From a virus (taxonomy: Duplodnaviria > Caudoviricetes): a stretch of 33,346 nucleotides of DNA. Both the position numbers and the translations under genes were made by a program. Shown here piece after piece: positions 1-21,759 of the stretch. Position 1 is the stretch's first letter, and each line of letters opens with the position of its first letter. The DNA lies in IMG/VR virus record IMGVR_UViG_3300026260_000017, positions 1 through 33,346 of that record; one strand, given 5' to 3'. Under the pieces are notes generated by a model that had not been told where the DNA came from, made no database searches, and saw only the letters and a list, made by a program, of their open reading frames with translations.

Positions 1-1
1 T

Positions 2-3000
2 ATTGATTTCCAAGACAAGTTTGAATTTTTTACTGCTGGTGTATGGGGTGAACCAGGATGCTTTACTGATGTTGTAATGAAACCTGATTGTAATACAGGT
101 ACTCAAATTGTTCGTTATGATTGTGCAAACCATCCTGGAATGGGTCCTGCAGGCGGTAATATTACCCTACAAGACACATCAACTTATACTTACTATGGAT
201 GGCAAGGTTTTGCTGATGTCACTGTTTCAGGAGGCATAGTAAGTGATGTTACTTGGACTAATCCAGGTATCACATATAAAAATGGAGATAGACTACAATT
301 AGCATTTGTAAATATTGGCGGAACAGGATCTGGATTCCTTTACACAGTTAACAACGTTGTTAATACAGGTACAGTTACTAGTGTAACAATTACTGATAGT
401 GGTGCTGGTTACCAAAATGCAGATGTACTTAGCGTAGCTGATTCTACTGTAGGAAATGGTGGTGGATCTGGGTTCCAATTTACAGTTACCAATGTTCCTG
501 GTGATCTTACTGATTTTATTCTAAATGATAGAGGATCTGGATATCAAGTTGGTGATGTACTAAGACTACCTGAACAAATTGCAAATCAGTCTGTATACTT
601 ACCTGGCGAATCTGCATCATTCTCTGCAACTCTAAGCACAGGCAGTGCTCAGATTACTATCTCAGATACATCTAGTTTACAAGCAGGACTAAACGCAAAT
701 GGAACTGCTGGAGACGTTGGACAACTTGATCAGGCAACCACAATCATATCTATTGATAGTGGAACACAATTAACACTGTCTTCAAATCCAATTGTATCTG
801 GTGCAGCAAATATAACGTTCTCTACTTCAAATCCAAACGAACTTACTCTTGCAGATACAACAGGACTTTCTATTGGATATAAAGTAGAAAAAGTAAGTGG
901 TACAGGTGTACTAGCAGCAGACACAACTATTGCTAACGTTGATAGTGCTACCACTGTTACATTATCAGATGCTCCAACTGCACTTGGACCGACTGTTGTT
1001 AATTTTGTTCCTGCATTTGGCGACCCAGCGGACGATTTTAGTTACACAATTGACACTCTTGGTGAAGTAGGAAGTTTTACTCTAGTCGATGTAGGTAATG
1101 GATATTCACCAGCAGATGAATTTACTGCAAATGCTACAGACCTTACACAACCTATTACATATCCTGTAACATCTAAAGATGTTCAAAGAATTACATTAGT
1201 ACAAACTGTTGTTGGTGGTACCATCACAACTTCTGATACTATTTCAACTTTAGCTGGTGACATCACAAACTTTTCGTTCACTGGTGGTGACGTTACACAA
1301 ACTACAACTGGTCCTCTTGCTTGTAGCTGTGTTCAGGGAGCATTTACAGCAACACTCGCAGATACAACTGGTATTAGTGTTGGAGACTTAGTAACAGAAG
1401 ATGCAAGTGGTAACCTTGCAGTTGATGTCACTGTTGCATCTGTTGATAGTGCAACTCAAGTAACACTATCTGCTGCATTCCTTCAGACTGCTAGTATCAA
1501 CCTAACATTCACATCGGATGAGCAGGGATCATTTACTGGTGTTGCATCAACATCTGCTGGTGGTGGTAGTGGTGCAACATTTGATGTAGAGAGAAGCACC
1601 AATGGTTTAATTATTGGCGTAACTCTCAATGCTGCTGGTCTTGGATACTCTAATAGTGATACTTTAACTATTGCTGGTAACTTAATTGGTGGAGCTACTC
1701 CTGCAAACGATATTACAGTTACTGTTGATACTGTAAATGCTGCTGCAACCATTGCTATACTAGATGTTGGTTTGGATGGCAGTGGAAATATTTCTTCTAT
1801 TCTTCTAGAACAAGATCAAGCAAATATTCTTTCTTCTAGTGATACAATTATTAAGACTGGTGCTGCAGGAACTCAATACACTGTTGACGCTGCTGGTGCT
1901 TTAGCATATAGATTCTATATTGATACTGGATCTGGTGCTGTACTAACAGCATCATTCACAATGTATGTTGGTAGTACATATAGATTTGATTTAAGTGACA
2001 ACAGCATGTCTGGTCACCAATTTAGTTTCTCTAAATTCAGAGATGGTTTTAATTCTCCAAGTTTAGTTGAAAATTTAAGTACAACATTTGATCTAGTAAG
2101 TTATACATTAACACTAACATCTACCACTGGTATTTTACCTGGAATGATTGTTACCGTTTTAAGTGGAGACGGTGTTCTTGATTCTGATACTAGAATTGTT
2201 TCTGTAGATAGTGCTACTCAAGTTACGTTAGACAAATTACCAATAACAGCTGGTGTTACTGTTATTAATATCTCTGGTATTGAATACACTGATGGTGTTC
2301 AAAGAGTTGTTGATGCTCAAAACAATTATGTTGACATCAACGTTACTTCAGCAACACCAAACCTTTACTATTTCTGTGCTTCTAGTGCTGGTCACGAAGA
2401 CGAAGGTGGTGAAGATAACAACGAAGCATTGATAACTATTGATCCTAACAACCCTAAAGTTTTTGGTAGTGGATTAGTTTTAAGAGCTACAGATATTTCT
2501 TCTGTAAATATCATCACAATGGAAGTTCTTACTGGTGAGGTAACTGTTGCTGATATTAAATCTACTGAAGGTACTATTGATGTTCTCAGTGCTCCTGATC
2601 TTTCGTCTACTACTGTTGCAGCAACAGTAAGCGTTACAACTCCATTAGTTACCTCAGGTGCTGCTCTTACTCTAACGGGAACTTCTGTAGAGTCTACTGC
2701 AGATTTCACAGTTGGTGGATTAACTGTTACTCAGGCAGACGGTAATGTTGTTACTTCAGGTGAACTTAAGACTACAGATAAACTGAATATCAATGACAAA
2801 ATAAGCATTGAGAATAATATTATTTCTACTGATGCTGGTAGTGACCTAGTTCTAACCGCACCTACTGGTAAAATTACTAAATTTACTGGTTTTGGTTCTA
2901 TTAACATTCCTTCTGGTACAACCGCACAACGTCCTGGTGCTAGTGGTGCAGAAAATGGATCTATCAGATATAACACAGATAGTAATCAATATGAAGGTTA

Positions 3001-4443: not shown

Positions 4444-4944
4444 ATGGCAACTACAACCGAAAAATTTGATTCTAAAGGTGGTTTTGCTATCGGCAAAACT
4501 ATCATTATTGATGAAGAAAGAAATGCAAAAGATTTTAATACTCTAGAAGTAAAGAACAGACATTTCACAGATAGTTCACAAACTCGTTATATTTTAAGAG
4601 GTCTTAATACCTCTACTCTTGACTTGGATGGATTAGGAACAAAAATTTCTATTGCAAATAATACTATAAATTTTGTCACAGGAAACATTATTGCAGCTAA
4701 TGATTCAGGAACTGTATATGCTGTTAAGTTTGAGACTGCTGTCTCATGTGACGGATCAGGAAATGTAAATATTATGTCTAGTTTCCAAACAGTAATCAAA
4801 GATGATATTCCCATAGGTGAAACTTGGAGTATCGAACCTACTGGTGGAACAAACGTTTTTAGCTACAATACCGTAAGAGCTGGTACGACTGCAACTATTA
4901 AATGGGCTTCATCCACAGAAGTTATCAGTATTGCTTGGGCTTGA
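4444..4944 (+). CDS. Putative virion structural protein, 166 aa
   Basis: ATG 2 nt after the upstream stop; beta-rich composition; lies between two giant structural genes. Confidence 0.7.
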   Translation: MATTTEKFDSKGGFAIGKTIIIDEERNAKDFNTLEVKNRHFTDSSQTRYILRGLNTSTLDLDGLGTKISIANNTINFVTGNIIAANDSGTVYAVKFETAVSCDGSGNVNIMSSFQTVIKDDIPIGETWSIEPTGGTNVFSYNTVRAGTTATIKWASSTEVISIAWA

Positions 4945-4946
4945 TG

Positions 4947-4953
4947 CTAAATA
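4947..4953 (+). promoter_or_regulatory. T4-like late promoter variant CTAAATA
   Basis: Intergenic, 36 nt upstream of the ATG at 4990; the same motif recurs before other structural genes. Confidence 0.7.
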
Positions 4954-4989
4954 TAGAATAGGAAAAAAGTCAAGAGCACGGGAACCACC

Positions 4990-7900
4990 ATGAGTTTTCA
5001 TATTAATTCCGATAAAGAGAAGATTAGAGGTGTAAACTCTAAATTCATCGGTGATAATGAAGCAACTATTAGAATCGGCACAGGCGCAGACGAAAAAGAA
5101 GTCTTGCGAGCTGAACTAGATTCTGCCACGCAATTACCCCGTATCGGTATTAACCGAACTGGACAACGAATTAACAACATTGTTCTTGATACGGCAGGTT
5201 CTGGATATACCGTAAACCCGAATGTAACTATCGGACCTCCTAATGTTGAAGGTGGTATTCAAGCACTTGCTTCCGCATTTATTTTTAACGGTAAAGTAAC
5301 TACAATTGCTGTTAACAACCCAGGTTCTGGATATACTGTTGTTCCCCTTGTTACTGTTTCCGACGGTGGTGGTGCTGGTGCTACTGCAACCGCAGAACTT
5401 GATACTGTTGACTACGAACTTGACATCAACGGTGCTATTAGAACATCTACGTCTATCATTTCAGATACGGCGAGAATTCTAAACCTTGATATTGACAACT
5501 TTATTACTCCAGATCCTAACTTCAGGGGTCCTAACCTGAAGACTTATATGAATAACACAGGCACATTGTGGTCTGCTAATGTTATCATACAAAAAGATCA
5601 ATACAGATATTTTGGTGCTAATGTTTATCAATCATTAAACACTGGACAAACAGGATCTGAAGCTCCAGAACATAAGGATGGAATTGTAAAAAATGGTTCT
5701 GTTGACTTCAAACATATCGGTTTCCGCGTCAATGATCCAACTGAGTTTAGATATAACGATACTGGAGAAGCTGGTGTATTCCCAAGATCTATTACACCTC
5801 TACTAGGTGATAGATCAGACAAAGTTGCTACTACAGAATACGTCCTTAACCTAGCAACGAATGACGTTGGTGGTCGTATTTACGTTTCAGCACAGATTGG
5901 TTCTGACCTTAACGATGGTAGATCTGCTGTAAACCCAGTTAGAACTATTAAAAAAGCAGCACAAGAGGCATGGAAAACGCCTGGTGTTAAAGAAACTATT
6001 ATTGTATCTGGTGGTGAATATGTAGAAGACAACCCAATCTCTCTACCACCTGATGCATCAATCGTTGGTGACAACCTTCGTCTTGTAATAGTCAGACCTG
6101 CCAATCCTGGCAAACACATGATGAAGTTTGGTGATAAGAACTATGTGCTTGGTATTACTTATCGTGACCAAATTGATTCCAATGGTGACGCTGTTGCTAC
6201 TTGGGACTACGCCATGGTCTTTGACGACAAGCAAAGAATCGTGGTCGATTCTGAAGCTAATGGCGACATTGGCACAACATTCCCAGTTGGTCATCAGATT
6301 TTCGGACCTCAACAGTTCCGTGTTAGTTTCCAGAACAACACAGGTTTAGCTACACTGGTATCTGGTTTAATTGTAAAGGGTGTTAACACTGGTTCTAGAG
6401 CAAAAATATTTGATGTTGCATTTGCAACTACAATAGGTGCTAGTGCATACGTTAGTGGTACTGTTGATGTTCAACTACAATCTGGTTCTTTTGTTGAAGG
6501 TGAGCAATTTAATTATATCACATCTGCTGGTGCAGGTAGTGCTATTAACCTTGCTATCACTGGTCAACAAGGACCAAATACTTTAAGATTTTCACAAGAT
6601 CCTACTGGAACTATTCCAGGTGGTACAATTGTTCAATTAGTAGGAACACCATCAACAGGTGCTGCTTTCACAGGATTCTATGAAGTTGCTGAAATTGATA
6701 CTACACAATCTGCAAGTAATATTTGGGATGTAACATTCTTCCCACTCCTAAGTGCTCCTACATGGGATGCAACAGGTGTTGGTGGTACATATGTAATTAA
6801 TCAAGCTACTACACAAACTGAAACTATTGACACTACTGCAATTAAGTCAATTAGAGCTGAGGGTGAGGTTGTATCAGTAGACGACGATTACACTACAACT
6901 CTACCTATTTCTAGAATTGACTTCTCTTTACAAGGAGATGCAAGTATTACTCAAGGTGGTTTCCAAAATGCACAGTTTGGTAATGCTGAAGACATTGGTG
7001 GTATTGTATTCTATACAAACCAATTAGTTGGTAGAACAAATATACACGAGTTTAAAGAAGGTCAAGAAATCTTAATTGAAAACCTTCCTACTTCAAGTCC
7101 CGATTTATCAGAATTAAATGGTAAGCAAAGAATTTATAAAGTATTAGAAGATGCTGATGGTCGTTGCAGAAGATTTGTAATTCCTAAGAAGATGCCAGCG
7201 ATTACAGATCCCAATCTGGATCCTGGTCAGTTTGCAACTGTTAAGAGTTTTTCAAAAATAGTTACATTATCTCTACTCAACTCTCCAAATAGTTTCCCTC
7301 TATCTACTCCTGTAGAAAGAAGATTCCAAGACGCATGTGTATTACTACGCAATAACAGAGAGTTTATTGCCGATGAAGTATTAGGAAGAATCAACAAAGA
7401 ATTTTCTAATGATTATTATCAGGTATCTGAAATTAGTGGTGGTGGAGATACATTTAAAGTATACTTGGGTCAAACTCCAGTAACTCATACTTATGTTTCT
7501 GGTGGTACAGTTAAATTTGAAAATGCAACTATAAACATTACTAATTTTGTTTATGATAATTCTGTAACAGGTTATGCAACTATTACAATTGCTTCTGCAC
7601 TATCAGCTTTAGTAGAAGATGATACTGTAAAGCTAGCAGATATTCTACTATCATGTGATTCAGGTCAAAAGACTTATCCTTCTTACAGTTCTCCAACTAG
7701 CGGAGATAACACAGGAAGTGATGGTGATGAGCAATGTAAGCAAGATATTGTCCATTTTGTTAATGCTATTGTTAGAGATTTAGAATTTGGTACCAACCAC
7801 AATACTATTGAAGGTGCTAATAAAGTCATTGTTGGTGGTGACATTGCATATATTAAAGATGAGATAGTTCAAAACTTCCGTGCTATTGAATATGCACGAG

Positions 7901-10900
7901 AGCTTTGCATCTATGCAATGAGAAATTGGAAAATTGGTAATGGTACTACAACAGAACCAACTTATGTTCCAAAATATTCATCAATAACAAGATATTTTGA
8001 TAGTACAATTATCAACACAACTGCAGGAAATCCTGTTTGTGCTGATGTTAAATCTGCAATTGATACTTTAACATATCTTTGGGTAGATGTTATTACAAAG
8101 AACCAAAGTGCAACATTTCTAGATGCTGCATACTTAATTGAAAGGAATAAGTATTTAATTGCTGATCAAGCTTTACGTGATACATTAGGTCAGTTCCCAT
8201 TATTTGCACTTAACAATACAAACGAAAGAAAATGTAAGAGAGATCTTCGTATTACTCTAAGCAATCTAGCAAAAGATTTGGTATTAGGTGGTAACGAAAA
8301 TATTGTTATAGCTGCTGAAGAATATTTCACACAAACTGCTTTAACTGGTATTCCTGAGGCACAAAAAGCAGAAACAATTTATGCATACCAGAGAGCTAAA
8401 ACATATGCTATCGCAGCAATGCGTAACTGGACAGATGGAACATATGTCGATCTAACTCCAACTAACGCAACATACAATCCTTCTACTGGTGCATTAGAGG
8501 TACTTTTCCCTGATCCTCTTATTGCTCCTAGTGTAGGAGATAGAATTGCATTCAAAGAAGATGCTTTAAATTGGGAGTGTACTTATAACAGTGTAACTGG
8601 TCAGCATCCTGGTCCTTCAAGAACTGATCCTACTTATGGAAAGAGTTTTGAAATTACACAAGTTGCATCTGCAGGTGGTACAACTACAGTTTCCACTAAC
8701 GTTGGTAATGCAGGTGCTGCTTCTGGTTCATCTCATACATTTATTAGTGCAGTAGCAGATGGAACTATTATTGTATACAATCCTACTGTATTAACTTCTG
8801 CTTATCCTAAAGTTGAAGATTGGAATATTCTTCCAGATTCAAATGCAGGAGCTCCTACAGCACAGCATACACCATCAGCAGTAACCTACAACCCTGTTAA
8901 TGGTGATCTTACAATGACCGTAACTGGTCATAGTGTTACTACTAGTAACAGTGTTAAAATTGCACCAGAGTCAATGGTGTTTACTTGTGCTATGGATGGA
9001 AATGCTACAGAGCATAAGTATCCACAGGTAGGTCAACCAGCATACGGAAATTCTATCGCAGTTACATCAACAACTGCATCTTCATTTACAATTAATATTG
9101 GTGCTACAGGTGCTGATGCTCAATGGACTCCATCAGATGCTACATACGATCCAGCTACAGGTGCATTAGTTTTAACAATTGGAAGTGGTCATGGACTTGG
9201 TGTTGGAGAAGGTGTTGTACTTGATAACGACAGTCTATCGTTCACATGTACGATGGATGGAGATAGTGTTACTAAAACATATCCAAGAGCAGGTCACGAC
9301 CCATTTTCAGGAAGATCTATACCTATTGACAGTGTATCAGATACAACTGTTACATTAAACGTTGGTGTTTCTCCTGCAAATAAAAACTTTACCCCAACTA
9401 ACGCAACTTATAATGCATCAACTGGTGATATGGTTCTTGCCCTTGGGCAGCATGGTCTTGCAGTTGATAAAGGTATTGTAATTGCAAATGGAGCTCTATC
9501 ATTTACTTGTGATAAAGATAATAATTCTACTCTTCATACATATCCACGTTCATCTGATCCTGCTTCAGGCGAATCTTTAAGTATTACAAATGTTGCTTCT
9601 ACTCAGCATACAGCTACCAATGCTGTTTATACACCAACTACAGGAAGTTTAGTTATAACGAGTGCTGGACATAATTTCGCTAATGGAGATTATGTAAAGA
9701 TTGCTGATGATTCTTTGACATTTAATTGTGTTTTAGATAGTGGATCAACAAACAAAACATATCCTCGTAATAACTTTGATAATTTAAGTGGTAGATGGGT
9801 AGCAATCAGTAACGTAACCACTGACACATTTGAAATTAACACTGGTCCATCTTCTTACACAGGAGCACATACTTTTGTAAGTGCATCTTCTAATGGTATT
9901 CAAAGACAAACTGGAAATGTTACAGTTAATGTAGGTGCTTCACCTCTAGTTAATCATCAGGTAACTGGTGCAACTTATGATCCTGCTACTGGAGATTTAT
10001 TATTAACAATAGGTGCTCACACTTTATCTGTTGGAGAAGGTGTTAAGATTGCAACGGATTCATTAACCTTCACTTGTGCTATGGATGGTGGTGCTACTAC
10101 GCATACTTATCCTCGAAATATAATTGATAATTATACAGCAACTGATGCTGCTTATGATCCAACAACAGGTGTATTAGGACTCAGTATTCCTGCTCATGGA
10201 ATAAAGGTTGGAGACTGGATTAAGTTAGATGATGATTCTCTAACATTCACTTGTGCTGCAGATGGTAATGGTACGCAACACACATATCCAAGATCAACTG
10301 ACCCAATAAGCGGTAAGTATGTAAAAGTTACAGCAGTACCAAATACAGACTCAATTGCTATTCAAGTATTAGCAATAATTCCTTCAACTAACGTAACTAC
10401 TCATACATTCGTTTCTGCTACTGCTAATGGTGTTAAAGCTAAACGTGACAGAGCATATGATCAGGCAGTACCAATTACTGCTATTGGAACAGGAACAATT
10501 ACTCTCAATGTTGGTCCATCACCTACTGTTAATCACACAGTAACAAATGCAACTTATAATACTACAAGTGGTGACATGGAACTCACCATTGGTAACCATG
10601 CATTACAAGTTGGAGAAAGTATTAAACTTGCTGCAAATTCATTAACTTTTGAATGTCCTGCTGCTGTTGGAACCCATACATTTGTAACTGGTGCTGCTGG
10701 AGGAATTACTCCTAATGCTGGAAGTGCTGTTACAGCAGCTACAGGTACAACATATAACCCAACAACGGGTGATATGGTATTGGAGATTGGATCTCATAGT
10801 TTGACAACAAGTAACACTGTTCAGATCGCAAATGGTGCTGTTACATTTACTTGTGATGCTGATAACAATGGATCAAACCATGCTTATCCTCGTGCTACTG

Positions 10901-13900
10901 ACCCTGTTTCTGGTCAGAACATTGCTATTACAGCAGTGGGAGCAACAACAATTACTGTTAACGTTGGTGTAGCATCTTCAAATAGTCAGAGTTCATATCC
11001 TCGTGCATCTGGAGCATCTACTGGAAGCGGTGCTGATTATGCATATGATGCTGCTCTACCAATTACTGCTAGAACTGCCACTACTGTTACTATAAATGTT
11101 AACGGTGGACAGGGTGCTATTAGTGTTAATTCTGCTCATACATTCGTATCTGCCACAACTAACGGTCTATTGAGTGGTAGTGGATATTCTCACACATGGA
11201 CTGCTGCTGCTACAAACGCAATAGTATCTGGTGGTGGATATCCACATACATTTGTAAGTGCTGTAACTGACGGAGTTCAATTTATTCCACAATCTGCACA
11301 TACATTTGTATCTGCTACATCTAATGCCCTTAAGCATTTACCAAGATCTGCACACACATTTATTAGATCAGGTACTAATTCTGTATTGATATACAGCACT
11401 GGAACACTTAGCCAATGTGCTAACGTTGAATCTTCTATTGATACATCAATGAGTCTCTTTGAAGATATTCTAGATGGAACAGTTCTTGCAGGTGCGACAA
11501 CTAGAACTAGTAACGCTTTATATGATACTGCACAAATTATTTCATATTCAGATAATTATCTCACTGATGCTAACAACCAGAGAGTTGCAATCCGTGGTGA
11601 CTTTGATGAATATCCAATCATTGAGGCATCTCCATATACTCAGAACTCTTCTGTTATCTCATTCTTAGGTGGTAGTGGTGCTCTAGTTGACGGTGCTAAG
11701 GTTAAGCAACCTAACTGTCCTTTCCCTGGTCTTGAATTAGATGGATCTGCATCCTTCCCTAATCAGGGTAAGTCGATGGTTGCATCTGCATTCACGATTG
11801 TATCCTTTGGTGGTATTGGTTATAAGATTATCAATGACGGTTATGTTCAGTTGGTGTCTGTGTTCGTTATCTTCTGTGCTGATGGTGTTCTTGCTGAGTC
11901 TGGTGGTTATGCATCTATCACGAACTCTGCTACTAACTTCGGTACATTCGCACTGAGAGCAAGAGGTTTCAGTGCAACACCATACGTATTTGATATTGCA
12001 ACTGTCTCTAACGTATCTTCTACACCTACTGGTAGAACAATTCTTACAGTTAGTGGATTAGGAAGAGAACCACTAGAGCACTATGTTGTTAAGATTGATG
12101 GTTATACCAATACTAATACTGACATTGAATACTTTGTTGATACTGTTTCAGCAGTAACAGTTGGTCCTCCTTTCTCTGCTCAGTTAACCATTGATGATGG
12201 TACTGGTGGTGCCATGGATCTTACAGATATAGCTACTGGTCAAGCAGTATCTACCAGTGTCCTATCTGGTAAGACTATCAACTTACACAGACCATCTATT
12301 TGTAACTCCTCATCACACACTTGGGAATTTGCTGGATCTGGTACTAACTACCTTGCTCTACCTGAGAACGGTGGTACTAAGATTGAAGCATACGAACAGG
12401 TATCGGAAAACTACGGTCGTGTTTATGTTTCTGGTACTGACGAACTTGGAGACTTCAAGGTTGGTACATTCGCTAGAATTGAGAACAGAACTGGTAACAT
12501 TACCTTTACTGGTACGGTTACAATTTCTGAAGTTGAATTCTTGAAACTAAAAGGTGGTGACGTTGTTGTTACTGGATTTGATGCATCAAACACACTTGGT
12601 GGTGCTAACGCTAGTGACTCTAAGCTACCTACACAGAAGGCAGTTAGAGATTATATCACTAACAACCTTGGACCTTTCATTAACAAACCATACTCTACGA
12701 ACGCTGTTCCTAGAGCATTGGTTGAATTAACAGACTCAGGTAAGATATCTGTTGATCAGATTCCAGCATTAAGACCATTCAGTGTATTCACTGTTGCAGA
12801 TCAAGCAGAAAGAACTTCTCTAGAAGGAGCACTTGCTGGTGACATCGCAATCCAACAGGATACATCAACATCATTCATTCTAAACAATGATACTGATAGT
12901 TTGTTCCTTGGATTTAACCCAGATGCTGCTTTAGCATTTACCATTGGAGATATCTTTACTGGTAGCTTAACTACTGGACGTATTCAATCTACAGAATACA
13001 GAAAAGGGGTTGTCTATCAGATCAACGTCAGCAACGGTGGTTCTGGATATACTGTTGCTCCTGTAATTACATTTGCTGGTGGTAATCCAGAAGCAGGTGC
13101 AGTAGCTGCATCGGCAACTTGTACGATTGCAAATGGTCAAGTTGTTACTGTAACTATTAATGAATTTGGTGGATTTAAAGGTGGTAAAGGATATACTACT
13201 GCTCCTACTATAACATTTGCTGCTCCTACTGGTGCTGGTACACAAGCAGTTGGTACTGCTTTAATTGAAAGCAGATTATATGGTGATATCGTCAACAATA
13301 TCAAGATTGAAGATACTGATACATTTGATGATAGTACAACACCTACTGCTACAACAGTTAATATTACTAGAGTTGTTAATACTTCATCCTTTGATGTTAA
13401 CAACTGGGTATCTCTATCATCTAATCAAATTGCTGCTTCTGATATCACATCTGGTGTTATTGAAACAGACAGACTTGCACTTGGTGGAGCTGCAAACTCC
13501 TTCACATTCTTAAGAGGTGATTCTAACTTTGCACTAGCAATGCAATCAATTAAGGGTGCAGAAAGCAGATACTTTGCAAGATTAAATTCTCAGTGTACTA
13601 CAGGATCATCTCAGATGATCTTCACAACTAACTCTGATGTTCTTATCGGTCACGAAGTCAAGAACTCTGTAAGTGGTGTTCAATCTAATACAAATATTAC
13701 TGGAGTTATTACTGCTGCAGGTCTAACTACGATCTCTCTAAACAATCCAGTCAATGCAACTATTCCTTTAGGAACAATCATTGAGTTTGAGCGTGGTGCA
13801 TCACCTCTGACATTTGAATCAACATTTACTCAGGGTAACTTTGTTGATGCTGTAATTATTGCAAATGGTGGTACTGGATATACTAATGGTCAATACTTCG

Positions 13901-16734
13901 ATGTATCACTAACAGGTGGTGCTGGTACTGGACTTAAAGTTAATATAGTTGTTGCCAACAATGTTGTTACAGAACTAACAGTTACTGATGGTGGTGTTGG
14001 ATACAGTGCAGACTTTACAGTTACAACTGCTCCTGGTGCTATTGGTGGTGGATCTTCTCTTGTTCTAGAAGCAAAAATTTCTACTGTTAATAGACAGTAT
14101 GCAAACGCATCTATTGACGTTAAGAGAGTTACAGATTTAACAATTTCTGCTGACCTTTATGGTGAGATTGGTGTTTCTAGATATAAGAAAGCACAGTTCA
14201 ATATCGGTCAGGCAGGTAACGGTTCTGTTGAACTTAAGACTGGTGCAGATAGTGGTCTTGACGCTGACTTACTTGACGGTGTACAAGGTTCCTTCTATCT
14301 AAACTCTAGTAACCAGAGTGCTGGTACTCTATCTTCTGATAGACTATCTGGAACTTACAACATTGCAATATCTGGTACAGCAGGTAACACTATTCGTGTT
14401 CTTACAGGTACTAACAACCCATCATCTTCTCCTGCCCCTAACAACTTCAGTTCTGGTATTGTTTCTAACACAATCTTTAACAGTGCTAATGGACTAAGTG
14501 ATGGTGGTACCAGAAATATGACGGTAACCTTCAGAGCTGGTGGTACTGGTTTCGATGCTGGATTTGGTGGTGTAAGACAACTTGCATTCAGTGATAATGA
14601 CAACATGTGGATCCGAGGTTCTGGAACTGGTGTTAGTTCTTTCGGTACATGGGCAAAGGTCTGGACAGGATTAAACGATGGTCTAGATTCAGGTCTTGAT
14701 GCTGACAAACTTGATAACAAAGAAGGTACTTGGTATCAGAATGCTTTAAACATTAACTCTGGAACTCTATCTGATAACAGACTTCCAAGATTTGTTAGTG
14801 CAACTAACTTTAGAGATAACGTAACTGTTAAAGGATTCCTTGGTGATCCTAAGTTCAGGATCTACTTCTCTGGAGTTATACTTGATACATCTGCTACTGG
14901 TGTATTTGCTCCAGGTAATCCAATTAACCTATACAACTCTAACGCACAGGCAGTCGGTAGCTTTATTATTGATAGTGTTGTAACAAACGATGACACTGCA
15001 GACAACTTTAATGATTACACAATTCTAATTGGTAGACTTAATTCTGGTAACTTTGTTGGTGCTATTACTGCTGGTAGTGCATCTAACAGACAACCATTTG
15101 ATGACTTTACTCTAGAAGATGGTAACACAGTAGATGTTGGTAAGATTGTTAATAATGCTGGATCTGGTGAACTAAAACTTGGAAGAGTTGATGGTCAGTC
15201 ATCCAATCCTGCAATCTACTTCAGATCTTCTCAATTAGTTTCTGGTGGAGATGCTCACTATACAGCTAAATTAGAAGCTGCTGGTGGTAATGCTTCAGCA
15301 GGTTCTGGTACATTAGCATTAACAGTTTTAAATGCTGATGCATTTACTATCAATGGTCAAAAAGCATGGAACGAAGGTAACATCCAATTTAGTAGTGCTA
15401 ACCTTGCTAGCTATGCAGTACAACGTGATGGTTCTGGTAACTTCTCTGCTGGAACAATTACTGCAAACTTAACTGGTGCAGCATCACTCAACGTTCTTAA
15501 GACTGGCGACACCATGACTGGTTCGCTTGTCCTAACTGGTGCAGGTTCTAACCTTACTGTTAGTGGAACAGCAACTGTTAATAATACAACAACTATCAAC
15601 GCTGACCTTAACGTTGATAGCAATACATTGTTCGTTGATGCTTCTGAGAATAAGATTGGTATTGGTGAGACTGTATTTACTAACCGTGCTGGTCAGTCAT
15701 ACGTTAAGTTGAGAATGAGAACTTCCAACTTTGATAGTTATGATGATGATCATCGTATGGACTTTGGTCAGTTCAATGGTAACTGGGTAGATGGTTCTGG
15801 TGGTAGTGATACTCAGTTTGGTGTGTCATTTACATGGCAAGATAAGGTAAGAGGTGGTCTACTTTATGACCACAGAAGTTCTGAGAGAATGGCACTCTGG
15901 TCTTCTTATGGACGATTAGCGTTCATGGTTGATCCTGGTACAAGTGGTGATGAGGTTCCAATCACTGTTGGAACTGAGGCAATGACCATTGTTCCATCTG
16001 GTACGGTTGGTATTAACACAACAGGTCCAAGCACTAGCTACAAGTTAGATGTTAACGGACAATCTAGATTTAGAAATTACGTTACTCTTGATACCGCAAA
16101 TGATAACTCTGGTGCTGGTATCCAGTTCTTAGGTTCTTCATCAGAAAGAAACTTTAGAATTGGTAACCAATGGGGTCATAGTAATGCGTTTGAGATAACA
16201 CCATCTACAGCTGCTGGTAATTCTTCATGGGATGGAACACCCGCAATTTATGTAAGAGGTGACCATCGAGTTGGTATCTATACATCATCAATATCTGGAA
16301 CTGACCCAACCAATAATCAGGTAAGATCATACAGGTTGAATGTCAATGGAGATATGAACATCGATGGTCAATTCTTCCAGAACAACCAAGAGTTCGTAAC
16401 ATCTAGATGGACAGAAGCTTCTAATGGCAATGACATCTATAGATTATCTAAAGTTGGTGTTAAGAAGCAAGATCCTACATATGACTTACATGTTCTTGGA
16501 ACTGCAAACATTGAAGGTCAAACTTTTGTTAACCAAGCAAATACAAGTGTTCTTTACGCTAACGGCGTAAGACAGTGGATTGACTCTTACGGTATATTCA
16601 AATCTAACAGTCAAGTTGTTGCTGAGAACATTACTGTTCCCAACGGAACAAATTGTGGTAGTTTTGGTCCCATTACTATAAATAACAATATTGCGATTAC
16701 AATTGCTGATGGCGGTAGCTGGAACATTGTCTAA
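4990..16734 (+). CDS. Giant tail-fibre/baseplate-appendage protein, 3914 aa, with split beta-helix, two helical domains, nested beta repeats and fibre-type C-terminus
   Basis: Motifs seen: YVSAQIGSDLNDGRS...RTIKKA and GGEYVEDNPI (beta-helix cap); GSGYT..P.V repeats; GLDADLLDG and GLDADKLD; VLKTGDTMTG; VGINTTGPS..KLDVNG; C-terminal GPITI...WNIV. Located upstream of the neck genes. Confidence 0.85.
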   Translation: MSFHINSDKEKIRGVNSKFIGDNEATIRIGTGADEKEVLRAELDSATQLPRIGINRTGQRINNIVLDTAGSGYTVNPNVTIGPPNVEGGIQALASAFIFNGKVTTIAVNNPGSGYTVVPLVTVSDGGGAGATATAELDTVDYELDINGAIRTSTSIISDTARILNLDIDNFITPDPNFRGPNLKTYMNNTGTLWSANVIIQKDQYRYFGANVYQSLNTGQTGSEAPEHKDGIVKNGSVDFKHIGFRVNDPTEFRYNDTGEAGVFPRSITPLLGDRSDKVATTEYVLNLATNDVGGRIYVSAQIGSDLNDGRSAVNPVRTIKKAAQEAWKTPGVKETIIVSGGEYVEDNPISLPPDASIVGDNLRLVIVRPANPGKHMMKFGDKNYVLGITYRDQIDSNGDAVATWDYAMVFDDKQRIVVDSEANGDIGTTFPVGHQIFGPQQFRVSFQNNTGLATLVSGLIVKGVNTGSRAKIFDVAFATTIGASAYVSGTVDVQLQSGSFVEGEQFNYITSAGAGSAINLAITGQQGPNTLRFSQDPTGTIPGGTIVQLVGTPSTGAAFTGFYEVAEIDTTQSASNIWDVTFFPLLSAPTWDATGVGGTYVINQATTQTETIDTTAIKSIRAEGEVVSVDDDYTTTLPISRIDFSLQGDASITQGGFQNAQFGNAEDIGGIVFYTNQLVGRTNIHEFKEGQEILIENLPTSSPDLSELNGKQRIYKVLEDADGRCRRFVIPKKMPAITDPNLDPGQFATVKSFSKIVTLSLLNSPNSFPLSTPVERRFQDACVLLRNNREFIADEVLGRINKEFSNDYYQVSEISGGGDTFKVYLGQTPVTHTYVSGGTVKFENATINITNFVYDNSVTGYATITIASALSALVEDDTVKLADILLSCDSGQKTYPSYSSPTSGDNTGSDGDEQCKQDIVHFVNAIVRDLEFGTNHNTIEGANKVIVGGDIAYIKDEIVQNFRAIEYARELCIYAMRNWKIGNGTTTEPTYVPKYSSITRYFDSTIINTTAGNPVCADVKSAIDTLTYLWVDVITKNQSATFLDAAYLIERNKYLIADQALRDTLGQFPLFALNNTNERKCKRDLRITLSNLAKDLVLGGNENIVIAAEEYFTQTALTGIPEAQKAETIYAYQRAKTYAIAAMRNWTDGTYVDLTPTNATYNPSTGALEVLFPDPLIAPSVGDRIAFKEDALNWECTYNSVTGQHPGPSRTDPTYGKSFEITQVASAGGTTTVSTNVGNAGAASGSSHTFISAVADGTIIVYNPTVLTSAYPKVEDWNILPDSNAGAPTAQHTPSAVTYNPVNGDLTMTVTGHSVTTSNSVKIAPESMVFTCAMDGNATEHKYPQVGQPAYGNSIAVTSTTASSFTINIGATGADAQWTPSDATYDPATGALVLTIGSGHGLGVGEGVVLDNDSLSFTCTMDGDSVTKTYPRAGHDPFSGRSIPIDSVSDTTVTLNVGVSPANKNFTPTNATYNASTGDMVLALGQHGLAVDKGIVIANGALSFTCDKDNNSTLHTYPRSSDPASGESLSITNVASTQHTATNAVYTPTTGSLVITSAGHNFANGDYVKIADDSLTFNCVLDSGSTNKTYPRNNFDNLSGRWVAISNVTTDTFEINTGPSSYTGAHTFVSASSNGIQRQTGNVTVNVGASPLVNHQVTGATYDPATGDLLLTIGAHTLSVGEGVKIATDSLTFTCAMDGGATTHTYPRNIIDNYTATDAAYDPTTGVLGLSIPAHGIKVGDWIKLDDDSLTFTCAADGNGTQHTYPRSTDPISGKYVKVTAVPNTDSIAIQVLAIIPSTNVTTHTFVSATANGVKAKRDRAYDQAVPITAIGTGTITLNVGPSPTVNHTVTNATYNTTSGDMELTIGNHALQVGESIKLAANSLTFECPAAVGTHTFVTGAAGGITPNAGSAVTAATGTTYNPTTGDMVLEIGSHSLTTSNTVQIANGAVTFTCDADNNGSNHAYPRATDPVSGQNIAITAVGATTITVNVGVASSNSQSSYPRASGASTGSGADYAYDAALPITARTATTVTINVNGGQGAISVNSAHTFVSATTNGLLSGSGYSHTWTAAATNAIVSGGGYPHTFVSAVTDGVQFIPQSAHTFVSATSNALKHLPRSAHTFIRSGTNSVLIYSTGTLSQCANVESSIDTSMSLFEDILDGTVLAGATTRTSNALYDTAQIISYSDNYLTDANNQRVAIRGDFDEYPIIEASPYTQNSSVISFLGGSGALVDGAKVKQPNCPFPGLELDGSASFPNQGKSMVASAFTIVSFGGIGYKIINDGYVQLVSVFVIFCADGVLAESGGYASITNSATNFGTFALRARGFSATPYVFDIATVSNVSSTPTGRTILTVSGLGREPLEHYVVKIDGYTNTNTDIEYFVDTVSAVTVGPPFSAQLTIDDGTGGAMDLTDIATGQAVSTSVLSGKTINLHRPSICNSSSHTWEFAGSGTNYLALPENGGTKIEAYEQVSENYGRVYVSGTDELGDFKVGTFARIENRTGNITFTGTVTISEVEFLKLKGGDVVVTGFDASNTLGGANASDSKLPTQKAVRDYITNNLGPFINKPYSTNAVPRALVELTDSGKISVDQIPALRPFSVFTVADQAERTSLEGALAGDIAIQQDTSTSFILNNDTDSLFLGFNPDAALAFTIGDIFTGSLTTGRIQSTEYRKGVVYQINVSNGGSGYTVAPVITFAGGNPEAGAVAASATCTIANGQVVTVTINEFGGFKGGKGYTTAPTITFAAPTGAGTQAVGTALIESRLYGDIVNNIKIEDTDTFDDSTTPTATTVNITRVVNTSSFDVNNWVSLSSNQIAASDITSGVIETDRLALGGAANSFTFLRGDSNFALAMQSIKGAESRYFARLNSQCTTGSSQMIFTTNSDVLIGHEVKNSVSGVQSNTNITGVITAAGLTTISLNNPVNATIPLGTIIEFERGASPLTFESTFTQGNFVDAVIIANGGTGYTNGQYFDVSLTGGAGTGLKVNIVVANNVVTELTVTDGGVGYSADFTVTTAPGAIGGGSSLVLEAKISTVNRQYANASIDVKRVTDLTISADLYGEIGVSRYKKAQFNIGQAGNGSVELKTGADSGLDADLLDGVQGSFYLNSSNQSAGTLSSDRLSGTYNIAISGTAGNTIRVLTGTNNPSSSPAPNNFSSGIVSNTIFNSANGLSDGGTRNMTVTFRAGGTGFDAGFGGVRQLAFSDNDNMWIRGSGTGVSSFGTWAKVWTGLNDGLDSGLDADKLDNKEGTWYQNALNINSGTLSDNRLPRFVSATNFRDNVTVKGFLGDPKFRIYFSGVILDTSATGVFAPGNPINLYNSNAQAVGSFIIDSVVTNDDTADNFNDYTILIGRLNSGNFVGAITAGSASNRQPFDDFTLEDGNTVDVGKIVNNAGSGELKLGRVDGQSSNPAIYFRSSQLVSGGDAHYTAKLEAAGGNASAGSGTLALTVLNADAFTINGQKAWNEGNIQFSSANLASYAVQRDGSGNFSAGTITANLTGAASLNVLKTGDTMTGSLVLTGAGSNLTVSGTATVNNTTTINADLNVDSNTLFVDASENKIGIGETVFTNRAGQSYVKLRMRTSNFDSYDDDHRMDFGQFNGNWVDGSGGSDTQFGVSFTWQDKVRGGLLYDHRSSERMALWSSYGRLAFMVDPGTSGDEVPITVGTEAMTIVPSGTVGINTTGPSTSYKLDVNGQSRFRNYVTLDTANDNSGAGIQFLGSSSERNFRIGNQWGHSNAFEITPSTAAGNSSWDGTPAIYVRGDHRVGIYTSSISGTDPTNNQVRSYRLNVNGDMNIDGQFFQNNQEFVTSRWTEASNGNDIYRLSKVGVKKQDPTYDLHVLGTANIEGQTFVNQANTSVLYANGVRQWIDSYGIFKSNSQVVAENITVPNGTNCGSFGPITINNNIAITIADGGSWNIV
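8449..11385 (+). repeat. Nine ~90-110-aa repeats (ATY.P.TG.L.L...H...SLTFTC..D...YPR..DP..G...NVG...HTFVSA) ending in five tandem 18-aa HTF-type motifs
   Basis: Repeat starts at about 8449, 8866, 9127, 9391, 9601, 9961, 10117, 10540 and 10669. His codons of the trailing motifs are at 11137, 11191, 11245, 11299 and 11353, an exact 54-nt period. Confidence 0.9.
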
Positions 16735-18691: not shown

Positions 18692-19468
18692 ATGGGTGTA
18701 ATTACAGATAAAGAAATTAGAGATATTGCTGTAAGAGTATCTCTTGGTATGTCGAAGAATCAAATTTTAGACTATGTGATCAAATCACATGTCACAGAAG
18801 ATCGACAGCTAAAACAAGTTCTACTAGAAATCGAAAACAGATCACATCAATATGAAAAAATGCTCCTTGATGAAAAGAAGGGAGACATTCGTTTACGTCG
18901 TGATAAAGCTACTTTGAAAAAACTCCAAGAAGAAGATGGAGATGAGTTTGATATTGAATTTGCTGCAGCTGAAGTTGAGTTTGCTGAACTCGATAAAGAA
19001 ATGTGGAATAGAAGAAAGGGTCAAGCAGAATATGAACTTCAAGTTTTCTTAGATTATATTAAAGACAAAGGTCTAACAAAACAAGATCTATTAGATTCAG
19101 TTGAATGGGATGAAGAAGATGAAAGAAAGTATTGGATTGCAAGACTTGGTAAACAAGCTGCTTTAGATATTATGGCAAATGGTAGAGTCGGTATTGGCAA
19201 CATGGATTCTATTGCTATGATGAAAGAAGAAGATCAAGTTGGTATTCTTGATGTTGCATCTCAGTATGCTTGTTTGATGAAAATTTCTATGGACAAGATT
19301 CAGGGAAGAACAGAAAAGTATTTCCAAGCATATGCAGAATCTCCTAACGTTCAAGTTCCTACATTCCATGGTGTAGAACACAACCTCAACATCCCACTCC
19401 TAGATCAAATCCGTGACCAACTCAATGACAAGCGTCTTCAGTCTGCCGATCAACCCGAAGATCAATAA
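18692..19468 (+). CDS. Hypothetical helical/coiled-coil protein, 258 aa
   Basis: Long charged helical ORF with motif EERKYW-like EDERKYWIARLGKQAALDIMANGRVGIGNMDSI; overlaps the next gene by 44 nt. Confidence 0.75.
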   Translation: MGVITDKEIRDIAVRVSLGMSKNQILDYVIKSHVTEDRQLKQVLLEIENRSHQYEKMLLDEKKGDIRLRRDKATLKKLQEEDGDEFDIEFAAAEVEFAELDKEMWNRRKGQAEYELQVFLDYIKDKGLTKQDLLDSVEWDEEDERKYWIARLGKQAALDIMANGRVGIGNMDSIAMMKEEDQVGILDVASQYACLMKISMDKIQGRTEKYFQAYAESPNVQVPTFHGVEHNLNIPLLDQIRDQLNDKRLQSADQPEDQ

Positions 19469-21131
19469 AAAATTTGCTGAGGAAACTTTTATACCATTCC
19501 TCATTGAGCATAAACATTTAATTTACGATCTTTATTTTACTTGTCGCATTCCTCCTTTTAGTCAGGATGCGATGGGTGATATTTTTACGGTTGATCCTAT
19601 TGCAGGAACTACAAGAAATGCAATATTTATTTCTCAAGAAACTGGCATTCCCTTATCAGCTACATTTAATAATATATGGATTAGACCAGATCAGGAAAAC
19701 CTAAATTTATGGATAGAAAATTTTAAACCTTTGTATGATAAGGGTGTTCGTATTGTAACGCTACCTCATACAACATGGGTTTCTTCAGGTCAAATTCAAA
19801 AAGAATTTCCTGAACTGTTTATTAAAAATACAATTCTTAGAGAAGTTACAAAAGCAAATGAAATTGTTGCTTGTGCTAGAGCAGGATTCCATTATGTGAA
19901 TCTTGATAGAGATTTGATGAGGGATAGGGATGCTCTTGATAGAGTTATCGTAGCAAAAGAATATTGTGCTTCTATTGGTAAACCAGTAAAATTATCATTA
20001 CTAGCTAATGAAAATTGTTGGGGTGGATGTCCTATCATGCCAGAACACTATCAGTTTAATTGTACTAGAACTGATGGTCCTCAGTATTTTAATGATGAGA
20101 TTAGTAGAGTATCTTGTTCTACTTGGGATGTAACAGAATCATCAGCATCTCTTAAAGCAGCAAACATTCCGCCATGGAGAGAAGACTGGCAAGAGTTTCT
20201 TGATCTAGGTATTGATGTATTTAAAATGCATGGTAGAGAAAGTGCTATCAGATTAATGGAGTCTATGGACATCATTAAAAAATGGAATGATGGTGATGAA
20301 ATTCTCTTCCCACGTATGAATGTATACATGGAAGATCTTAATATGAAAGATCGTCCCATTGATATGTGGAGAGATAAAATTAAAAATTGTAAGTTTGATT
20401 GCTGGGAATGTAATTATTGCGATACAGTTGTTGAAGCACATCTTAAAAAACAAGAGAGAGTATGTCACCCATTTGTAACCAGATGTTTAGACTCCATTGA
20501 TAAAGCTATTGAAGGGAAGTCAAAATTTGATCACGACATTCAGGGTCTAACTTCTGATAAGGTAAGGCACTTCCTCAACAATCTCTGTTCTTACGAGGAT
20601 ACAAAGTATCTAGAAATTGGTGTGTTTAATGGCAGCACATTCTGTGCAGCAATTCAAGGTAATGATATTACTGCTTATGCAGCAGATCATTGGCGTGATG
20701 TAGATATCAAACCAATCAGAGAAGACATTCCATGGGATGATGAAGAAGGATCTATTGAAACTTTCATTGAGAATGTAAAATCTGTATGGACAGACAACAG
20801 CAACATTGCAATTTTAAATGGTGATATCCGTGAAGCTACAGAAGAAAATTTAGATCAAAAAGTAAATACTATTTTTTATGATGCAGATCATGAATTGAAT
20901 GTACAGAGGAGTTGCTTAAATCACATTCTTCAATATACAGAGAATGAATTTATATTAGTGGTTGATGATGCAAACCTTGATGGTGTATTGACATCGACAA
21001 AAGATTTTATTGAAGAGAATAATCTTACAGTTTTGTATGAAAGAAGTATTCTTACTGGTGAAATTGAAGACATAAATTCTTGGTGGAATGGAGTAAATAT
21101 TTTTATATTAAAGAAACATGAACTTAATTGA
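19425..21131 (+). CDS. U32-family (UbiU/UbiV/TrhP/RlhA-like) Fe-S protein fused to a class I SAM-dependent methyltransferase
   Basis: N-domain: VNLDRDL (cf. U32 VVLAREL), ANENCWGGCP, DVFKMHGRE (cf. SLKIEGR), CKFDCWECNYC. C-domain: YLEIGVFNGST (SAM motif I), IFYDADH, LVVDDAN (Methyltransf_24-like). ATG at 19425 preferred over GTG at 19413. Confidence 0.75.
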   Translation: MTSVFSLPINPKINKKFAEETFIPFLIEHKHLIYDLYFTCRIPPFSQDAMGDIFTVDPIAGTTRNAIFISQETGIPLSATFNNIWIRPDQENLNLWIENFKPLYDKGVRIVTLPHTTWVSSGQIQKEFPELFIKNTILREVTKANEIVACARAGFHYVNLDRDLMRDRDALDRVIVAKEYCASIGKPVKLSLLANENCWGGCPIMPEHYQFNCTRTDGPQYFNDEISRVSCSTWDVTESSASLKAANIPPWREDWQEFLDLGIDVFKMHGRESAIRLMESMDIIKKWNDGDEILFPRMNVYMEDLNMKDRPIDMWRDKIKNCKFDCWECNYCDTVVEAHLKKQERVCHPFVTRCLDSIDKAIEGKSKFDHDIQGLTSDKVRHFLNNLCSYEDTKYLEIGVFNGSTFCAAIQGNDITAYAADHWRDVDIKPIREDIPWDDEEGSIETFIENVKSVWTDNSNIAILNGDIREATEENLDQKVNTIFYDADHELNVQRSCLNHILQYTENEFILVVDDANLDGVLTSTKDFIEENNLTVLYERSILTGEIEDINSWWNGVNIFILKKHELN

Positions 21132-21759
21132 TATCTTCCCCAAAGCTATTGGTAGAGAAGATTACCCAAATCATTCCGATTTGAAAAAACAAATCATTGA
21201 TATAATGATGGGTGAAAATATGGACACAAATACAATGTGTGAAAAATTACACCACTATGATAATAATTCTGGTAGATCGTTTCTACACAGAGAAGAGATG
21301 ACATCATTTAAAGAATGGTGTGAAGATCAATGCAAAATTTTTGTTGAAAATATGGGATATGAAGTTCCAGAAAAAATGATCGTCGTTGCCAGCTGGATAA
21401 ATCTATGTGATATGGGTGGTGAACAATATCCACATTTCCATACCAATGCATATGTCTCAGGAACATATTATCTTGCACATGAAGAAGGACATGCTCCATT
21501 ATTCTTTAGACATCCAGATAGTGCATCTCATTCATCAAGTGCATCTATCTCATTACAGGTAGATAAAAACACACTAGGAAAATATAACTGTGACGTTATT
21601 ATGTTACCTAACGAAGGAGAGTTGATGCTCTGGCCATCTAACCTTACACATGGGTATTCTGATAATCAAAAAGATGGTAGGATTTCTGTCTCTATGAATT
21701 TTATGCCATCTGTAGTTGTGGATGATAGGTATTCATTTAAGGCTTCTATCAACATATAA
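21118..21759 (+). CDS. 2OG-Fe(II) oxygenase (TIGR02466-like), 213 aa
   Basis: SWIN...QYPHFH..AYVSGTYYL...EGELMLWPSNLTHG...RISVSMN gives an H-x-H...H iron triad plus the 2OG-binding R-x-S; overlaps the upstream gene by 14 nt. Confidence 0.85.
   Translation: MNLIDIFPKAIGREDYPNHSDLKKQIIDIMMGENMDTNTMCEKLHHYDNNSGRSFLHREEMTSFKEWCEDQCKIFVENMGYEVPEKMIVVASWINLCDMGGEQYPHFHTNAYVSGTYYLAHEEGHAPLFFRHPDSASHSSSASISLQVDKNTLGKYNCDVIMLPNEGELMLWPSNLTHGYSDNQKDGRISVSMNFMPSVVVDDRYSFKASINI

Follow-up and report, generated by a model that had tools for sequence, protein, structure and literature searches.

In repeat proteins the domains normally follow one another along the chain, and growth is by tandem duplication. 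The locus described here raises the question of how a protein is built when copies of one small domain are opened by their leading motifs and are not closed before the next copy begins. The window, which is the whole 33,346 nucleotide (nt) stretch of the IMG/VR virus record IMGVR_UViG_3300026260_000017, is a structural module of a T4-like marine cyanophage, and the array is carried by an open reading frame (ORF) of 3,914 amino acids (aa) at 4990..16734 on the + strand. This ORF is a phage tail-fibre protein by family match and by position in the tail module. Eight small predicted beta-barrels in it very probably nest like brackets, in a chain that runs out and back, completes the barrels in reverse order and forms a branched arm likely to project from this virion tail protein. 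The architecture is real and well supported; host recognition is a candidate role.

The repeat was divided into six motifs: A1 (TY-D-P-x-T-G), A2 (F-x-C), A3 (YPR), B1 (DP-x-x-G), B2 (NVG) and C (HTFVSA). Motif profiles were seeded on the nine copies in the window and refined on orthologues; at a score above 10, no motif exceeds a background of 0.05 hits per 1000 aa in shuffled regions. The regular expression parse and profile scans find exactly nine A1, nine A2, nine B1 and nine C motifs in the ORF, all within aa 1157-2135, with a single weak A3-type hit beyond this region at aa 896. The 9/9 count in the window is partly circular, the profiles being seeded there, and the counts in orthologues are the outside test. 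All nine domains share the motif set, with 25-65% identity over A1 and A2. Parsed as a stack, the nine opening and nine closing motifs give a closed D1 followed by D2[D3[D4(D5)[D6(D7)[D8(D9)]]]], in which the eight copies D2-D9 are nested six deep and D9 starts with its own C. The features are as follows.

4990..16734, + strand: host gene, a tail-fibre-family structural protein of a T4-like cyanophage (ORF; phrog_5342 'tail fiber protein', E=0; cultured-phage orthologues).
8446..8781, + strand: D1, closed barrel (A-B-C) inserted separately, ahead of the nest (parse, profiles; site empty in the array-less L042 and L050).
8860..9111, + strand: D2, open barrel (A-B) at the stalk base, with C5 as its predicted closer (parse, covariation, complex model; model range 1..421).
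9115..9375, + strand: D3, open barrel with C4 as its predicted closer (covariation, complex model; model range 87..402).
9376..9597, + strand: D4, A plus the first half of B, with C3 as predicted closer (parse, covariation, complex model).
9598..9909, + strand: D5, closed barrel within B of D4, a side branch (parse; outside the C3-C5 interface; orthologue matches FCCH, Z 8.1).
9910..9945, + strand: D4, last B strand, resuming after D5 (parse, profiles).
9946..10125, + strand: D6, A part, probably completed by C2 (parse; D6(D7)-like blocks followed by a C motif in five relatives).
10126..10443, + strand: D7, closed barrel between A and B of D6, a side branch (regular expression and stack parse).
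10444..10524, + strand: D6, B part (parse, profiles).
10525..10659, + strand: D8, start of A, as far as the F-x-C strand (parse).
10660..10980, + strand: D9, C-first (circularly permuted) barrel in the loop after the D8 F-x-C, pairing putative (parse; 63 distinct such units in the collected sequences).
10981..11190, + strand: D8, remaining A, B and closing motif C1, tip of the stalk (the D8(D9)+C1 block recurs whole elsewhere, 50-81% identity).
11191..11244, + strand: C2, returning motif that would complete D6 (absent in L030, which lacks D6/D7).
11245..11298, + strand: C3, returning motif, predicted to complete D4 (covariation, complex model).
11299..11352, + strand: C4, returning motif, predicted to complete D3 (covariation, complex model, fold-search range).
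11353..11394, + strand: C5, returning motif, predicted to complete D2 (covariation, complex model, fold-search range).

The parse reproduces the five trailing C motifs of the first-pass annotation of this DNA (nt 11137, 11191, 11245, 11299 and 11353, 18 aa apart), as well as its placing of D5 in B of D4, of D7 between A and B of D6, and of the C-first D9 after the F-x-C of D8. The annotation had also assigned one returning motif to each of five open domains. This would hold for C2-C5, which are long-range closers. C1, however, is joined to B of D8 by an ordinary short loop; D8 is therefore a closed tip and only C2-C5 return. In the family, consecutive C motifs are far more often 18 aa apart (628 cases) than at any other spacing, the next being 23 aa with 53 cases. 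Only D1, D5, D7 and the permuted D9 are contiguous in sequence, which is not the pattern of tandem beads on a string. In the models the hosts are discontinuous and whole domains lie in their gaps, the D6-D9 layer being read by syntax only, and each insert is a copy of the domain that hosts it. A random order of eight opening and eight closing motifs is well nested one time in nine. One balanced protein is thus weak evidence, and the weight rests on the orthologues.

Eighty loci were retrieved via the 403 aa that follow the array, and two with fewer than 300 aa before this anchor were excluded. The number of openers equals the number of closers in 75 of the 78 orthologous loci, 40 of which have no more than one domain. 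For loci with at least four domains the counts are equal in 30 out of 38 with the first profile and in 37 out of 38 with a variant closing motif (H-x-Y-V-G-G) derived from the exceptions themselves; the remaining exception, L037, has two weak closers by eye. These 38 loci are redundant and contain 10 distinct bracket strings. As had been proposed, the trailing C motifs track the open A-B units: three where only D2-D5 are present, four in L030, where D8/D9 are added, and five in the window allele. The bracket order, the equal counts across orthologues and the short empty loop in relatives without the arm can be read from the sequences directly. In a more distant set, the best 120 of 804 matches, the counts are equal in 58 proteins and within one in 92 (r=0.93). 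Domain number ranges from 0 to 13 among the orthologues, relatives reach 29 openers, and two relatives have a nesting depth of 9 according to the parser used here.

Relatives of 5,400-6,600 aa (P0012, P0013, P0017, P0018, L111, L113 and L346) have 26-29 opening motifs in much larger branched nests. A mirrored nest, with two closing motifs first and two A-B units after, is found in L063 (about 4690-6550) and in P0034. This suggests a stalk whose outward path can also be made of C strands, with A-B units on the way back.

The pairing of closers with domains was assessed by covariation in 221 distinct four-domain cassettes (effective number approximately 56 at 80%). Mean-field coupling peaks at the nested partner for each domain (D2-C5 1.32, D3-C4 1.23, D4-C3 1.73, and D5 with its own C 1.69), and the reverse order is the best of the six pairing orders on all four mean-field measures. 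When mutual information is used and the 55 clusters are bootstrapped 200 times, the reverse order comes first in 188 and 193 of the replicates. When window aa 1290-1652 and aa 2081-2136, which are 430 residues apart, are modelled as a complex, the score is 0.67, the best of three controls scoring 0.00; this mark is reached by 116 out of 157 solved complexes and 2 out of 215 mismatched pairs, a guide that is rough here as own alignments were used. The runs show at least 98% contact agreement, with a partner pLDDT (predicted local distance difference test) of at least 85. All 25 pairs listed are D2-C5, D3-C4 or D4-C3, with D5 outside the interface. The AlphaFold2 model of the four-domain orthologue cassette L088 (106 rows), which is 71% and 57% identical to the two window pieces, has a pLDDT of 94.7 and a predicted template modelling score of 0.84. 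In a fold search with this model, single barrels of 63-82 residues span 87..402 (D3+C4) and 1..421 (D2+C5).

The out-and-back stalk with strands donated in reverse order, as suggested in the first-pass annotation, is supported by covariation, the complex model and the AlphaFold2 ranges for D2, D3 and D4. The pairings D2-C5, D3-C4 and D4-C3, with D5 as a self-contained branch, are predicted from covariation and modelling. D6-C2, D8-C1 and the permuted D9 are probable from the syntax and from blocks reused elsewhere; D6(D7)-like blocks directly precede a C motif in L111, L113, L346, L364 and L392. The chain would run out via D2, D3, D4, D6 and D8 and then return, giving each of these its last strands in reverse. 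Profile typing of C3, C4 and C5 gave small margins except for C5. An alignment of the whole nest, window first, with cassettes and sub-blocks was dropped, the repeats being misaligned. A stack-versus-queue count on resumption motifs (45 versus 6 of 62) is not proof, the parser presupposing a stack.

The closed D5 orthologue aligns with the E1 FCCH domain at Z 8.1 (root mean square deviation, rmsd, 2.5 Å over 76 residues). Solved FCCH structures are matched at Z 8.1, 8.0 and 6.6 (rmsd 2.3-2.7 Å, 75-77 residues), and the phi92 endosialidase barrel at Z 8.0 (rmsd 2.2 Å, 82 residues, 17% identity). FCCH and reductase-type barrels are the best fold matches listed, and phage neck and tail proteins are also among the matches listed for the L088 model; hybrid-motif and tail-sheath domains are absent among the 50 listed. 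Foldseek against the PDB gave nothing meaningful (all template modelling scores under 0.2), and searching PDB sequences by profile turned up a single hit, which was unconvincing. In the Pfam scan D5 scores 12.6 bits (E=0.14) to FCCH (PF16190), below the cut-off of 29.5 bits, and D1, D2, D3, D7 and D9 have no FCCH match. Precomputed PF16190 hits are present in several relatives, and the ESM Atlas feature score to the FCCH cluster is 0.93. The domain is predicted from these models to work like an FCCH-type barrel, though it lies outside PF16190. The topology of FCCH is described as a six-stranded closed Greek-key barrel (PMC13576161). In the complex model the last C strand lies by the first residues of the domain, and the two ends of a closed barrel are therefore adjacent.

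Both the F-x-C cysteine and the C-motif histidine are present in all 771 closed domains picked by profile, and in all four domains of 106 out of 106 cassettes; an aspartate three residues after the cysteine is found in 651 of the 771. It may be guessed from this invariance that a metal site joins the returning strand to its own barrel. An apparent Cys-His coupling in the coupling-transfer test was rejected as an artefact, both residues being invariant. There are only nine cysteines in aa 1150-2140, one per barrel (9118, 9502, 9721 and the other F-x-C motifs), often with Asp and His/Lys nearby.

In relatives that lack the nest its position is taken up by a loop of approximately six residues (empty sites in L016, L021, L026 and L035), and those without D1 (L042 and L050) have an empty site there as well. 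Whole copies of the D6(D7) and D8(D9) blocks, 50-81% identical, are found again in other loops and also in non-orthologous proteins. Parsed insert positions, counted in a redundant set, are after B2 (762), B1 (307), A1 (123), A3 (104) and A2 (69). Growth by insertion rather than tandem duplication, as claimed at first, is therefore borne out for this nest by its empty sites and reused blocks. It does not extend to the whole family, where closed cassettes are also repeated in tandem (seven in P0001 and four in L154). Both modes of growth act in the family. A second D3-D5 block follows D4 in P0075, P0077, P0113 and P0118, and the closer at its junction has by eye a C5-like head and a C3-like tail, which fits a crossover between homologous motifs.

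Recombination is very frequent in T4-like phages. With its two ends side by side, a closed barrel or block would fit any loop of another copy, and recombination between the conserved motifs flanking a loop could swap the short loop for a closed block from another copy or gene. Loop replacement between conserved flanks would keep the balance of openers and closers. No donor gene was detected in G001, a record that is 26% complete, and GC content does not mark D6-C2 as foreign (0.40 versus 0.37-0.39).

Several results weigh against the nested, reverse-order architecture or limit it. The mutual information for D3 is a near tie (C4 0.167, C3 0.166), and the effective depth of the cassette alignment, at about 56, is shallow. 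With couplings from 725 closed domains the reverse order is best in 49-68 of 205 cassettes versus 52-95 for the forward order; this coupling transfer failed its own positive control. The complex model splits one chain, a type of pair prone to pass. Covariation, AlphaFold2 and the complex model are all predictions and lack independence, as the cassette alignments behind them overlap. The whole nest folded by AlphaFold2 from its single sequence has a pLDDT of 33.7, which leaves D6-D9 without a usable model. A Z score of about 8, near the FCCH values, is at the level that the tool calls possibly a common arrangement. Counts are unequal in 62 of the 120 distant proteins and the parse is free of leftovers in only 91 out of 181 proteins, the mismatches being traced to weak motifs in the orthologue set only. 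The tandem cassettes count against growth purely by insertion, and the S-PM2 orthologue is without barrel domains and annotated as hypothetical, although its neighbours are annotated as virion structural.

Three other arrangements of the same motifs were weighed. The very regular 18-aa period of the trailing motifs is solenoid-like, and they could form a small repeat domain of their own, the open A-B units being complete alone. This deserves almost no credence, because the closer count follows the open count, the trailing piece has a pLDDT of 86 with D2-D5 and of 28 with an unrelated partner, and D3+C4 and D2+C5 each align as a single barrel. The returning strands might also complete the barrels of a neighbouring chain in an oligomeric fibre. 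Such domain swapping is judged very unlikely. A single chain (L088) folds with high confidence, the short closing loops at the tips (D5 and D8) suit self-completion, and the nest is an insert in a short scaffold loop; on the other side, the model puts C3-C5 on D2-D4 as a separate chain and covariation is blind to whether contacts are within or between chains. Tail fibres are usually trimers, which also fits swapping. At the tip, the C after the D8 F-x-C could complete D8 and C1 could complete D9, in which case D8 and D9 would be crossed neighbours and D9 would not be a permuted insert. A C strand does pair with the F-x-C strand in the complex model, so a direct hairpin after it is geometrically possible. 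Mirrored stacks in L063 and P0034, however, and the short loop from that C to the start of D9, as joined termini would give, make this crossing unlikely; the coupling score also prefers the nested reading in 53-59 of 63 units, and is given little weight as its positive control failed.

The principle of self-insertion is already known from Si3 of the cyanobacterial RNA polymerase beta' subunit (RpoC2), which is described as eight sandwich-barrel hybrid-motif domains, of which four combine segments far apart in the chain (PMC10895346). A 2026 survey that covers 2.7 million classified domains uses Si3, a six-level nest, to illustrate complex insertion (PMC13114784). The words phage and viral are absent from the main text of that survey. 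As far as these accounts go, in both proteins one small beta domain is inserted into itself, distant segments complete discontinuous domains, and there are eight copies at six levels. The virion setting, branching, permuted copies and allele turnover differ, as the fold probably does. The cyanophage nest lies in a phage tail-module protein and not in the beta' trigger loop, and matches FCCH-type barrels best, with no hybrid-motif domain among the 50 matches listed. Close relatives differ widely in its copy number and branching, inserts occupy five different loops, and some copies are permuted to start with C. In a search at the level of titles and abstract openings, no publication on recursive self-insertion in phage fibres or proteins was found. 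Domains of the T4 sheath have reportedly been described as Russian-doll.

Two other groups resemble the cyanophage domain in its predicted fold. FCCH domains of E1 (PF16190; PDB 9mc4, 4p22 and 2v31) and FCCH-like domains of phage tails resemble the cyanophage domain through the alignment of the D5 orthologue; the cyanophage domain differs in falling below the Pfam cut-off, in its extra conserved F-x-C, YPR and HTF motifs and in its many self-nested copies. The phage endosialidase barrel (phi92, PDB 4hiz; K1F) is alike in fold and as an accessory domain of a phage attachment protein. It is present as one copy per chain in a catalytic tailspike, and sugar binding is reported for the endosialidase (PMC12632334). 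The giant tail-fibre or baseplate proteins of cyanomyophages (phrog_5342, phrog_701 and phrog_18802; S-PM2 p088, ACG-2014j and S-RIM44) are of the same family and in the same position before gp13-gp15. The cultured cyanomyophage orthologues examined carry 0, 1, 4 or 5 domains, and the window allele carries 9, with the extra D6-D9 layer.

A variable, optional surface arm would add weak contacts with the host envelope, and an accessory host-contact arm has about even odds. Within species the cultured orthologues differ, with 1 and 5 domains in two ACG-2014j isolates and 4 and 5 in two S-RIM44 isolates; S-PM2 has 0. FCCH domains are reported to face outward on two siphovirus tail tubes (PMC13576161), and a weak FCCH-like match is noted in a tail tip (PMC13612043). 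In the endosialidase account the barrel binds sialic acid and its loops influence host discrimination and host range (PMC12632334). The arm may, with somewhat less than an even chance, be a spacer, a shield or a stabilising decoration, possibly metal-binding via Cys/His, and make no host contact. The range of 0-13 domains among orthologues, with none in S-PM2, suits such a part, as does the conservation of Cys and His in 771 out of 771 closed domains, and FCCH-like domains are said to decorate the exteriors of siphovirus tail tubes too (PMC13576161). High turnover and the differences within ACG-2014j (1 versus 5) and S-RIM44 (4 versus 5) fit selection at a host interface, although neighbouring genes differ too, and the similar endosialidase fold binds sugar.

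The two ACG-2014j isolates (L398 and L399) and the two S-RIM44 isolates (L400 and L401) differ in the allele of this gene and in the genes downstream of it, a swappable region before gp13.

It can be proposed, tentatively and as a possibility rather than an expectation, that this is a natural grafting system. A closed barrel or sub-tree would be recombined into any of five loops in either orientation, the Cys-His pair, possibly a metal site, would fasten the returning strands, and a single-chain tree of adjustable reach and valency would tune the grip on Synechococcus and Prochlorococcus surfaces. The nested build, which is rare, would in any case be likely to let these viruses add or remove surface arms. 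The depth is like that of Si3, in a virion-type protein that is variable between close relatives. The family offers hundreds of natural alleles for study of the origin and folding of nested domains, the first domain of the nest closing only about 830 residues later, and a readable structure for giant cyanophage proteins left blank by Pfam. As a candidate basis of host-range variation it can be tested, and branched single-chain scaffolds could be modelled on it.

Genes for neck, sheath stabiliser, terminase, sheath and tube lie downstream of the array gene, and Synechococcus phage Sf-CH1b has a terminase 94.7% identical to the one encoded here. Orthologues of the array gene are present in cultured Synechococcus phages, with identity of up to 82.8% over the region after the array, and the array region matches 329 phage records, with organism names starting Synechococcus, Cyanophage, Prochlorococcus or Marine. 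The whole-protein scan of the ORF gave 0 Pfam hits, and scans of its helical and C-terminal parts gave nothing convincing, PF00502 included. Of seven ORFs scanned in the window, none besides the array gene contains barrel motifs. Between the fibre genes and the neck genes, at 19413-21759, are a methyltransferase-domain gene (PF13578) and a 2OG-Fe(II) oxygenase gene (PF13759).

Two helical modules, with C-x-x-D and R-N-W motifs, flank the array at 7320-8440 and 11395-11470. D1 and the D2-D9 nest are both inserted in loops of the second helical module, which makes one further level of nesting. Relatives carry precomputed hits to the phycobiliprotein family PF00502; the helical segments of the window gave no Pfam hit. 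The first helical module contains, at 7430-7700 (aa ~815-905), a barrel-like repeat that has diverged and is C-first, with H-T-Y-V-S-G-G followed by a Y-D-N-x-x-T-G strand, C and Y-P. In L019, L033, L063 and L070 a four-domain cassette is inserted immediately before this diverged repeat.

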